The notes under the pieces were generated by a model. That model worked only from the letters and a program-made list of their open reading frames with translations, was not told the DNA's origin and did no database searches. The position numbers and the translations under genes were made by a program. From assembly GCA_964016885.1 (NCBI GenBank), contig OZ024742.1, positions 334,428,001 to 334,492,000 on the forward strand: a stretch of DNA of 64,000 bases, given 5' to 3'. Position 1 is the stretch's first letter, and each line of letters opens with the position of its first letter. Shown piece by piece: positions 8,537 through 52,122 of this stretch. The DNA comes from Eledone cirrhosa (Eukaryota).

Positions 8537-8675
8537 TTATTAAAATAACAGATTAAAGTTTAAGCAAAGAATAGATGCTTTCACCCTTGACGGGAACTTC
8601 TGAAAGTAACAGAAGTTCCCGTTAAGGGTGAAAGCAGCGATTCTTTGCTTAAACTTTAATCTGTTATTTTAATAA
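8537..8675. repeat. Fold-back (66-bp arms, 7-nt loop) with degenerate HHR
   Basis: TTATTAAAATAACAGATTAAAG...GAACTTCTG aaagtaa CAGAAGTTC...CTTTAATCTGTTATTTTAATAA; the right arm has CAGAAGT-TCCC gttaa GGGT-GAAA; a relative lies at 50550-50675. Confidence 0.85.
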
Positions 8676-8989
8676 TATATATATATATATATATATATAT
8701 ATATATATATATATATATATATATATATATATATATATTCATCTTTGAATATCCATTTATTATAATTTCTTAAATAACACGGCAAGGTAGTGATGGTTAT
8801 GGTTCCACAAACAAAATCCTTTTCATTACGAACCCGTTCACCAAACCACTCTGCTACACACACACAGATACACACACACACATAGACGCGCACACATATA
8901 TATCACACACACACACATATATATATATATATATATATATATATATATATAAAAGACTTAAAATAAGAAAATTTAAAAAAAATTTTTTT

Positions 8990-9235
8990 TTTTAAATTAA
9001 CTTACTTAAATTTTCACTCCAACTAATTAGTTTCTGCAATGGGATAAAGACAGTTACGTAATCTAACTGTCGAGAATTCATTGCGTCATCAGGGAGTCTA
9101 TTCTCACCTAAGTCTCCAGGCAATGCGCGGACACCGGGGACTCATATAAAAATAATAATAATTCGGTAGATGGAACAGCTAGCGGGGACTGAATTCCATG
9201 TACTGAAATCCTCGCTGCCTCTAGTCAAATGGCCG
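8990..9235 (-). mobile_element. HHR-bearing element, family A copy 2
   Basis: Reverse-complement homolog of 20-275. Confidence 0.75.
9016..9097 (-). ncRNA. Type I hammerhead ribozyme with extended stem II
   Basis: Minus strand: ACTCC-CTGATGA-C-GCAATG..GACAGTTA gattacg TAACTGTC..CATTGC-A-GAAA-CTAATTAG-TT-GGAGT. Confidence 0.85.
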
Positions 9236-9482
9236 ATATATAATGGTAGATATATTAAATTATCTATATATATATTAATATATATATATTCTACATATAA
9301 ATGTGTGTGTGCGTGTGTAAATATATATGCTATTAAGTTAGACATGGCCTGGGCCAATACTGGCCAAAATCTATCAAAGTCATCAAAGTTATATTATGTA
9401 TATATAAAGTGTGGGGATCATAGATTAAATGATAGCCTGAAAATACATATGGAGATAAACATATATTGATGCAGATAGATAT

Positions 9483-11875
9483 ATTTATTTATTTGCCACA
9501 AGGGGTACGAGAAAAGAGGACAATACAAAGACACATGCCGGGAATTTTACATAAAGTCGTGTAAAAATACTGAAACAAACAATTATAACAATCGAAATCC
9601 CCAATAAGGGGGAGGTGCCACAAATGGATTGTTTACTGCCCCGTCGATAAAACAACCATCAACTTCAGGAGCGTGTTGTGCAAGAGCTCCCTTCTTCCTT
9701 TTGCTCTCTTCTTTAACCTACAGGCTTATAAACAGAGAAGGGCCAATCACTCGGGCCCTTTTCGCTTCATTTACCCACCTTTCAGTAAATTTACTGGGGT
9801 GCAGTGCCTCTCTCTCCACTCTGATTCTCCTTCTAAAGTGATACTTAAAGAAGGGAATCAACTGTGTTGTCCGGAGAGAAAGGCATCTGTTCTCAGTCCT
9901 CTCAATCTCGTCCACCATATAACCTCTTTCACCATAACCACTGTATATAGGAAAACCGCCTCTCTTTCGTTTTTGAAAGAGGCTGGCGGTTTGATCTTTA
10001 CTATGAACTCGGCAGTCAACTGGATTTGTCCCATATGCGACAGCAGTTACTCTGCATAGTTCCATAGGTCGGTTACGCCCGGGCAGTGTACAATTGCGTG
10101 CAAGACGGTTTCAATGTCCTGCTCGCATCTTGGACACGTCCTCTTGGAAGGATCCCTGCCGGCGCGTCCGTGCCTGTAGATCTTATCTCGAACGGGTAGA
10201 GCTACTCGGTAGCACTACCAGGCCAGGGACCTCTGAAAGTTGTCCATGGGTCTCGGGCGGAATGTCCTACCGAACAGACTGGTGAGCTCGTCGTTTTCAA
10301 CGCCTAGAGTCTCCCCGAGCACGTCGTTGCAGTGGTAAATTACTAACCCTCCATAGAATGTCGAAGTGGAGTCTCTACTGATTGCTGTGCCCGCTTGACA
10401 GAGGACTGTGAGCGACTGGGCGCATTCAATGTGCCAGAGGCCCATCTTGTTCGGTCTTCGCTTCACCCAAGACTGCAGCTCCGTCAGCGAGACAAGTTGT
10501 GGGAAGGCCTGTCTCACAAACGGTGCCCACACCGGTCGGTCGGTGAGGAATACCTGGAGATGCCGTAGCCTCAGCGCATGTTTGCGCATCATTAGCCACA
10601 GCATGCCCAGTTATCCATTGGAAGGGTGTTAACAGCAGACGGATCTCATCACCACTGGAGCCTGCATCTTCTAAAGGAATTGGAAGAGCATGCGTTCCAT
10701 CTTGGTGAGGTTTCACGAGGACAAGGTACGACAGTCAAGCGGTAGTAGATGACGGATGCTATGCAAGTGTTCGCCACCTCCGCTCGAACTTTCAAGGACA
10801 GTTTGCAGTCTTTCCACTTCTGGGTGAGCGCAAATACCTTGGCCATGACCTCGTTCTAGTTTTTCTCCACCTGGAGTTCTGGACTGAATCAGACCCCGAG
10901 CAATTTCACCGGTCCTTCCGTCCAGCGTCCGACGACGCTGTCGGACGGCATCGGTTTGCCTCTCCACATACCGAGTTGCAAACCGACAGACTTGTCCGGG
11001 TTCAGTCTTGCTCCTGTAAACCTTTGGTATTCCTGTAGTAGGTTGCCGATTACCTTGATTTCCAAGGTTTTCGATACCATTACCGTCACGATGTCGGCAT
11101 AAGCCGACGCCGCTTTTCGCAGTCCCGGTTCTAAATGGATGCCCTGCAAAAGCTCCAACTTCCGCAGTAGTGGCTCTAGAGTCAATAAGTACAGAATGGA
11201 GGCGAGAGGGCATCTCTGTCGAATAGAACGCATAATTGCGAACGGCTCCTATAGATAGCCGTTCACCTTGACCCTCGAGCAGATGCTGGTGTGCATCGCC
11301 TTGATCCAGCCCCTGAAAACGGGACCGAAACTGGCCGCCTTGTGAACCGCTTCCAAGTATCGATGGTCGACCCTATCGAATGCCTTAGACTGATCTAACT
11401 TGATCAGCGCCCCACCGAAGCCGGGTTTACACCCTACCCTCTCTATGATGTATCGTATGAGGTGAAATTTGTCGTGTATGAACCTGGTCGGGATTGCACA
11501 CGTTTGCGCTTTCCCTACCAGGTTTTCGACGACAAGCGCCAGCCTCGTTGCTAGCACCTTGGCCAAAATCTTTAACTCTGTGTTGAGCAGAGTTATGGGC
11601 CTGAAATTGTTTATTTCGTCCCTCTTGTGCTCGTCTTTCCTGACCAGCCCTACTACGCACTTGCCTGCATAACTGGTAATTGTCCGGTTCTGCTGCCAAT
11701 TGCAGTAGACGGCTTCGAGGACGCCAGAGAACAAGTCCGGCATGCCTATGTAAAACTCATAGGATAGACCATCTAGCCCGGGTGTTTTGCGTTTTCCGCA
11801 CCGAGCCAGAGCGTCCCGTATCTCAGTGGCTATGATCGGTCTTTCGAAGAACTCGGCGTCCACAAATGTCACTAT
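9483..11875 (-). mobile_element. 5'-truncated, degraded L1/Tx1-clade LINE (ORF2 RT plus zinc knuckle)
   Basis: TPGLDGLSYEFY, FRPITLLNTELKILAKVLATRL, LDQSKAFDRVDH, QRCPLASILY, AYAD; CPRCEQDIETVLHAIVHCP near 10080-10140; stops and frameshifts. Confidence 0.9.
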
Positions 11876-50944: not shown

Positions 50945-50981
50945 GAACCTGAAGATTGCGAAAGCATGAAAGTACTTGTTC
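50945..50981 (+). ncRNA. Minimal type I hammerhead
   Basis: GAAC-CTGAAGA-T-TGC gaaa GCA-T-GAAA-GTAC-TT-GTTC. Confidence 0.88.
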
Positions 50982-51206
50982 AATTAACACTTAACATTTA
51001 ATATTCTACCATAGTATTAAATGTTCTACCATACTATTTCATTCTAATACCATTATCATTTTAAAGAATTGTAAATAAAACGAGTAAATCAGCCAAAGCT
51101 GGAATTCCTTTTATTAATATAATCTTCTATACACAATCATACACACCAGTGTATATTTATATATATATATATATATATATGTGTGTGTGTGTGTGTGTGT
51201 GTGTAT

Positions 51207-51753
51207 TAATGTATAGTATATTTCATAATATACCGTATGTTTAATTAAAAACATTATGAAGACCCTGCGCTATCATTTTAAAGTAGTGACTATCTCACTT
51301 CTTTTTTTCGGCAAATGAAGGGAGAGAAGCTGACAGATTCTGTTTCACACTGTTGAAACATACGGTATATTACCAAATATACTATACAAACCTTCATGTA
51401 TACATCGCTATTTCAGAGCACCAATCCTAATTTTTTTTATTTTTGCTAGGACCGGCAATCGCTCTGTATAATCAGTTCCTGATTACAACTGGAATTCTAT
51501 AAGAATCCAGCCTCTATAATTTTCGGGAGAGGTCGGCAAGTACGTTGCTACGAGGAACACCAACAGTGTGAAACAGAATCTGTCAGCTTCTCTCTCTTCC
51601 TTTGCCGAAAAAAGAAGTAAGTGACATAGTCACTACTTTAAAATGATAGTGCAAGGTCTTCAAAGTGTTTTTAATTAAACATACGGCATATTACCAAATA
51701 TACTATACATGCATTCATGTGTACATCCTTATTTCAGAGCACCAATCCTAATA
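51207..51753. mobile_element. Retrozyme-like ~321-nt terminally redundant monomer with an inverted partial copy
   Basis: Direct repeat 51356-51431 / 51677-51753; inverted arm 51207-51355; decayed HHR GCT-ACGAGGA-ACAC caaca GTGT-GAAA-CAG aat CTG-TC-AGC at 51547-51587. Confidence 0.82.
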
Positions 51754-51849
51754 TATATATATATATATATATATATAATTGGAAAGTGAGGTTTTTTTAC
51801 AAAATGAGAAAAAAACCGGTGTCCTACACGAGTGAAAGTATAAGGGAAA

Positions 51850-52122
51850 GAGATGAAATCGAAAATGCAACTAGAGTCTTTTTTTCTTAAATATATATAT
51901 ATTTGGTTCCTTTACCGGTTTCGCAGTTCTTGTGCTTTTCAAAGGTAGAATTGAGATGGAGGGTTTGTAGTTTATCTCACATCAGATGTGAGAAAAACCA
52001 CAAACCCTCCATCTCAATTCTACTTTTGAAAAGCAGAAGAACTGCGAAACCGGTAAAGGAACCAAATAAACATATATATATTTTTAAAAGACTCCAGTTG
52101 CATTTACGATTTCATCCTTTTT
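51850..52122. mobile_element. Head-to-head fold-back with degenerate HHRs
   Basis: Centre CTCACATC-A-GATGTGAG near 51984; CTT-TTGAAAA-GCAG aagaa CTGC-GAAA-CCGG-TA-AAG at 52023-52060. Confidence 0.85.

Follow-up and report, generated by a model that had tools for sequence, protein, structure and literature searches.

Here we show that the fold-backs left by Penelope-like elements and hammerhead retrozymes in the genome of Eledone cirrhosa combine a head-to-head polarity, with the 3' ends of both arms facing outward, with a tail that almost always stands on one arm only. The analysis started from a stretch of 64,000 nucleotides (nt) of assembly GCA_964016885.1 (contig OZ024742.1, positions 334,428,001 to 334,492,000; hereafter the window) and was extended to the 3.0 Gb genome around it. 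Such insertions probably arise when two nicks both prime reverse transcription, at the two start sites on either side of the tail, and the ends of the two complementary DNAs (cDNAs) are joined by microhomology.

Twelve structures in the window (items 1 to 12, Table 1) had been listed as fold-backs in the original prediction. Self-comparison recovered inverted arms in 11 of them, and item 8 turned out to be an inversion, not a fold-back, because its arms have only ~18 nt of element sequence in common. The minus-left and plus-right order was found in all 12. Orientation was read from open reading frames or coding sequence in items 3 and 8, from hammerhead cores within the window in items 2-6 and 10, and from intact cores of other genomic copies in items 7, 9 and 11; the orientation of items 1 and 12 is the weakest, since it draws only on the tail and on a fold that resembles a hammerhead but has an altered core. 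The 12 items all stem from insertion of a single transposon class and are not independent random inversions. We then counted polarity in an even sample of 1 Mb (100 stretches of 10 kb at fixed positions; 999,400 bases), where contiguous fold-backs were defined by an arm of at least 40 bp, an identity of at least 75% and a gap of at most 100 bp. The sample held 99 of them, covering 30,477 bp (3% of the sampled DNA): 44 were head-to-head, one was tail-to-tail (77% identity) and 54 were not orientable, i.e. 44 of the 45 orientable cases followed the predicted polarity. Searches with single families gave head-to-head and tail-to-tail joints in ratios of 18:0, 11:0, 15:0, 23:1 and 9:1 (a few loci being counted twice), and the autonomous family gave 15 and 5. 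The polarity bias of contiguous fold-backs exceeds chance. The rule that every orientable fold-back is head-to-head did not extend to spaced pairs: tail-to-tail spaced pairs were present in L210, L229 and L231, and among ribozyme neighbours separated by more than 300 bp there were 7 head-to-head and 16 tail-to-tail cases. A polarity control with tRNA-derived short interspersed elements comprised 14 copies only, too few to inform.

Six families searched with tail-less queries yielded 86 pairs, of which 81 had the tail on exactly one arm (18/20, 13/14, 12/12, 16/16, 8/9 and 14/15; P = 5e-19 versus one half), while two families searched with tail-bearing queries, which bias the count, gave 18/18 and 17/21. 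Symmetric priming, as had been proposed, is thus not supported, since the two arms begin at two different fixed sites in those 81 pairs. In simple pairs of the autonomous family the tail arm was the shorter one in 8 cases and the longer one in 6, with 1 case of equal length, the corresponding figures in the item-12 family being 5, 3 and 4. Moreover, in 11 loci (L155, L293, L295, L296, L301, L308, L312, L324, L327, L338 and L360) the partner arm consisted solely of tail sequence, down to ~20 nt, that was absent from the long arm. A fold-back copy must lie within its template, and therefore tail-only and non-nested arms need a second priming. The tail count leaves out L163, whose end lay beyond the retrieved DNA, L164 and L084, whose partner was cut inside, and the duplicates L082, L100, L107 and L112; L167 and L168 entered the tail count but not the arm-length count, and the item-10 family, whose reference has an internal hairpin, stood outside the arm-length classification.

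The central junctions carried microhomology, 1-9 nt long at most joints, with a mean of 2.0 nt as compared to 0.63 expected by chance; 10 of 20 joints had at least 2 nt, against 15% by chance (the window's own row in this test was not informative). In two families the centres recurred ~30 nt below a TATA-like box, a position that we infer to be the 5' end of the RNA. The two arms of a pair also tended to share subfamily alleles. Linked subfamily sites differed between arms at 1/36 and 10/81, as compared to 50% and 38% between loci, and broader sets of sites agreed with this; in the item-10 family 4/23 sites were discordant. Such sharing would be expected from one RNA, from one source locus or from gene conversion. 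The overall divergence between arms did not decide the matter, being lower than the divergence to other copies in 10 of 16 pairs.

We propose that the enzyme of the element would nick both strands of AT-rich DNA, possibly by two staggered nicks ~10 nt apart, and that reverse transcription would start from both free ends, at the far end of the tail in one case and at its near end in the other. Priming from a target nick leaves the 3' end of the element at the flank, so two primings must give outward 3' ends. The two cDNAs may then stop independently or at the 5' end of the RNA, anneal via a few bases and be filled in, and would thus be joined at their 5'-truncated ends. A palindrome would form only if the tail-primed cDNA passed the second start site; otherwise an inversion without shared sequence would result. 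The earlier proposal of double priming, with cDNAs joined at truncated 5' ends, is probably right in view of the non-nested and tail-only arms, the microhomology and the activity of a Penelope-like protein in vitro (PMC11167929). Its claim to be a general palindrome-generating mechanism stands for this element class; for other classes it was not shown. It is quite possible, though a little short of probable, that both primings use the same RNA, via strand displacement or a tandem transcript, which would require that the RNA survive the first copying. With like reserve we suggest a programmed twin priming, in which an enzyme dimer would hold one RNA, the two nicked strands would be primed at the tail-bounding sites and the RNA would be copied twice. 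If true, the inverted pseudo-long terminal repeat (pLTR), the one-sided tail and the palindrome would all come from one reaction; this would be a mode of target-primed reverse transcription in its own right and would generate palindromes in large numbers. As many as 45 of the 99 sampled contiguous fold-backs trace to Penelope-like or retrozyme elements, and 44 per sampled Mb, when extrapolated, would mean on the order of 100,000 palindromes seeded in this genome.

Several observations weigh against this proposal. The genomic evidence comes entirely from end products, with no intermediate or empty allele seen; reads aligned to item 3 were dominated by other copies and showed no empty allele. 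Five of the 86 pairs break the tail rule. Single-arm copies are many, and 13 of 15 inspected had no partner arm. Tail arms could not be claimed to accumulate at the second start site, as short arms without tail are about equally common. The eight short families searched and the autonomous family gave 237-2718 first-look candidates each, and the loci are the best 20-30 of these per family, which favours young, long copies. As to one RNA, shared alleles may instead stem from gene conversion or from a single active source locus; L007 joins arms of two families, both tail-less, and in both L119 and L144 the arms disagree at two linked sites, so a single RNA does not serve in every case. The main text on the in vitro system reports no start-site difference between strands and no homology between primer and RNA (PMC11167929).

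Among the alternatives, the one that survives best is self-priming, in which one cDNA or antisense RNA folds back at a short inverted match and an endonuclease later trims one tail. It was proposed in PMC3846280, the tail being credited to endonuclease resolution in PMC8557442, and it would give head-to-head polarity, arms from a single molecule and microhomology at the joint; in two families the recurring centres do coincide with small palindromes. However, a copy cannot exceed its template. In 13 of 27 pairs (two families) it is only the shorter arm that bears the tail, apart from the 11 partner arms that are tail only, and the recurring centres below TATA-like boxes fit two cDNAs reaching the 5' end of the RNA. 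Self-priming thus survives only as a free hairpin, randomly nicked on either strand and integrated without target priming, and we consider it unlikely.

Rather less likely still is symmetric priming by two independent RNAs, enabled by the self-complementary (TA)n target, which was the cause originally put forward. As had been noted, most items abut TA-rich tracts, 9 of 12 having one within 6 nt of both outer ends when the tail is counted as element; item 11 misses by 27 nt, item 6 by 105 nt (left side) and item 8 has none. In the 1 Mb sample 71 of 96 fold-backs had a TA tract no more than 70 bp from one or both outer ends, as compared to 20% at random placement, and in three families TA flanked both sides in 14/16, 12/18 and 11/21 pairs (37/55 in all). 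Both start sites are AU-rich, and the two families united in L007 could also come from two RNAs. However, independent priming predicts that about half of the pairs have two tails or none, whereas this was seen in 5 of 86; the arms share subfamily alleles; and non-TA targets give the same layout. No TA was nearby in 5 of 44 sampled head-to-head cases, L053 is a head-to-head insertion at a non-TA site with a 10-bp target duplication, and rotifer copies have target duplications of 8-10 bp (PMC3846280). Self-complementarity of (TA)n is therefore not supported as the cause; the tract is preferred as target but not required. Target-site duplications in the 20 loci inspected were 10 bp in L053 and 14 bp in L006, those of the others being hidden by TA or not found.

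It is very unlikely that independent insertions stack in one TA tract with tail-to-tail pairs being lost, or that palindromes spread from a master copy; how the joints are built goes far towards refuting this. Stacked neighbours do exist, and items 2 and 3 of the window face each other across one TA tract. But stacked pairs are tail-to-tail: four of the five tail-to-tail joints of the autonomous family were separated by a spacer of 18-62 bp, which was nothing but TA in the three displayed, as expected from separate insertions into one tract. Head-to-head joints contain TA in just 2 of 44, unite the same family and vary between loci. A master palindrome copied whole was rejected, as the joints differ and the tail is found on either side where a centre recurs. 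An assembly or library artefact is the least credible reading, since, although fold-backs are a known library artefact and the window's own joints are unconfirmed in reads, the arms differ by 0-11%, the ends are fixed family-wide, the tails are one-sided, and raw reads of another sample (X18) held at least nine head-to-head-form and at least one tail-to-tail-form joints among those listed (each from one start, with 333 further rows beyond those listed), so that the joints are not only an assembly effect.

Penelope-type origin, also part of the original prediction, was borne out by an element with a reverse transcriptase (RT) and, at the C terminus, a GIY-YIG endonuclease and by the hammerhead retrozyme families. 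By its sequence, item 3 is a 5'-truncated Penelope-like element with RT, linker, GIY-YIG-type endonuclease and a predicted hammerhead in the 3' region; its terminal region has the hammerhead, the tail and the inverted 5'-truncated copy. RT lies in a single long open reading frame (P0001) with YVDD present; the Pfam RVT_1 match (E 3.6e-4) is below the curated cut-off, and Atlas neighbours bear RVT_1 and HTH_animal. Pfam reported no RNase H domain in P0001; Penelope-like RTs are not known to have RNase H. A search of PDB sequences gave no significant match. In the long arm the endonuclease part that follows the RT frame is interrupted by a stop and a frameshift; the short arm keeps the GIY-YIG-type motifs in an open frame ending at 24992. 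The motif, read directly, is VVY...C....C...YIG with two His later (CCHH; two cysteines inside the motif). It had no Pfam match of its own, but matched a Pfam-positive GIY-YIG frame of the same window at 29% (E 2e-4). The CX4CxxC linker ahead of the endonuclease in the long arm corresponds to the CX2-5CxxC feature of Neptune/Nematis type (PMC8557442). An asparagine-rich stretch in frame before RT (24050-24520, minus) resembles inserts in rotifer Penelope elements (PMC3846280). Elsewhere in the window, a frame at 7203-7805 (plus) with a Pfam GIY-YIG match (E 1e-4) is probably a remnant of another Penelope-like family, and 11249-11923 (minus) is an RT fragment of another retroelement (Pfam RVT_1, E 9e-10).

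Table 1. Positions and composition of the twelve structures in the window
Feature	Position	Strand	Description
Item 1	8447..8675		head-to-head insertion; hammerhead-like fold, altered core; tail ~90 nt (8447-8536) on left (minus) arm
Item 2	20664..21030		retrozyme pair; ribozyme cores 20710-20759 (-) and 20843-20889 (+); tail right only, ~20949-21030
Item 3, long arm	21123..24580	-	Penelope-like element, truncated at 5' end, tail absent; ribozyme core at 21364
Item 3, RT reading frame P0001	22091..24523	-	810 aa, N-terminal part asparagine-rich
Item 3, central junction	24570..24603		two 5'-truncated ends meet; 16-bp tandem duplication spans joint
Item 3, short arm	24594..25485	+	98.7% identity to long arm; ribozyme core at 25244
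Item 3, tail	25486..25531	+	46 nt, short arm only; TA tract next
Item 4	34194..34899		retrozyme, unit ~323 bp; ribozymes 34325-34350 (-) and 34710-34735 (+); outer tail right only
Item 5	35567..37907		tandem retrozyme, 450-bp unit with inner TA tract
Item 6	38040..38210		short pair; ribozyme core 38151 (+); left arm extends to ~38040
Item 7	40894..41635		pair; decayed ribozyme near 41310 (+); right tail
Item 8	48079..48903		related to item 3 (84-88%), older; upstream piece inverted and adjoining downstream piece; no TA tract
Item 9	49613..50258		left arm short, tail ~100 nt; right arm long, without tail
Item 10	50725..51157		ribozymes 50839-50877 (-) and 50944-50982 (+); right tail
Item 11	51207..51751		inverted arm without tail and partial tandem with tail
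Item 12	51778..52125		arms near-equal; left tail; centre ~30 nt below family TATA-like box

Items 2, 4, 5, 6, 7, 9, 10 and 11 are non-coding units with a predicted type I hammerhead motif, dispersed or in tandem; item 5 has three minus units, a centre near 37200, and then one and a part plus units. Ribozymes were called with our own hammerhead descriptor, which gave 108 matches in 1 Mb and none on the reversed sequence. An Rfam scan gave no hammerhead at the gathering score, its E-value list being full of microRNA models on simple repeats. Items 5 and 6 were identified by ribozyme without a genome search of their own. The families have a common plan, in which the outer ends are fixed and lie at TA tracts, the inner ends vary and partial tandems are optional. 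In the families of item 1 (L291-L310) and item 12 (L061-L090) the hammerhead core is altered family-wide with the stems kept, and these families have multiplied with a ribozyme that is probably inactive. At L007 (2740-2860) a direct head-to-head joint unites the autonomous family and an abundant sister family; the latter has its last 30 bp in common with the autonomous family, along with a similar tail, and is likely its non-autonomous partner. Small inserts within the TA tract of item-5 units (36591-36685 and 37805-37829) have TA on either side, which suggests that the tracts predate insertion.

Other fold-backs were also seen. A short hairpin family adjoins TA tracts at 14178-14245 and 50408-50519, and similar hairpin sequence recurs, with varying centres, among the unoriented fold-backs (e.g. 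L171, L190, L217, L249 and L254); this may be another family of the same kind. A 197-bp AT-rich fold-back (90%) at 40588-40784, absent from the first list, had no ribozyme found. Perfect 19-bp inverted arms surround (TA)16 at 6631-6700, a TA-centred fold-back of another type that is not orientable; the 1 Mb sample held six unoriented TA-centred fold-backs. Old tRNA-derived repeats form a dense cluster in both orientations at 54000-64000.

In the twin priming of LINE-1, both target ends serve as primers on the RNA and microhomology joins the resulting cDNAs; the two arms cover separate stretches, the second site being internal and set by chance. Item 8 and the 11 tail-only pairs have this geometry. 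Unlike LINE-1, the second site here is a fixed site of the family, and most pairs overlap, by up to 2 kb. In the literature searched we did not find twin priming applied to Penelope-like elements, though older Penelope literature or supplements may hold it. The layout itself is known, and is found here in new families: the head-to-head polarity rule, the one-sided tail and the TA bias are already published (PMC3846280, PMC8557442). According to the former paper, head-to-head is the arrangement met most often, and self-priming on an antisense template is offered as its cause; the latter reports a 5'-truncated inverted copy, a tail that is often confined to one end and a bias towards (TA)n, and names the origin of inverted ends and one-sided tail as unresolved. 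These endonuclease-positive (EN+) Penelope-like elements share the inverted pLTR and the tail with those described here, and the parts of the two papers examined derive the layout from antisense self-priming with endonuclease resolution and give no counts. In Eledone the tail is confined strictly to one arm whatever the arm's length, some arms are made of tail alone, and the tails measure 40-100 nt. Animal non-LTR retrozymes (bioRxiv 10.64898/2026.07.22.740005) are likewise short hammerhead-bearing tandem units from Penelope-like termini; a word search of the main text found neither inverted insertions nor tails. The closest biochemical parallel is PAc (Poseidon, Anolis), a Penelope-like protein that nicks and extends both strands in vitro, at AT-rich targets, with two start sites bounding the tail and a predicted dimer (PMC11167929); its main text draws no link to inverted insertions and gives no strand difference in start site. 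The counts obtained here argue against the published self-priming reading, and they make a standing mechanistic question directly testable in that existing in vitro system.

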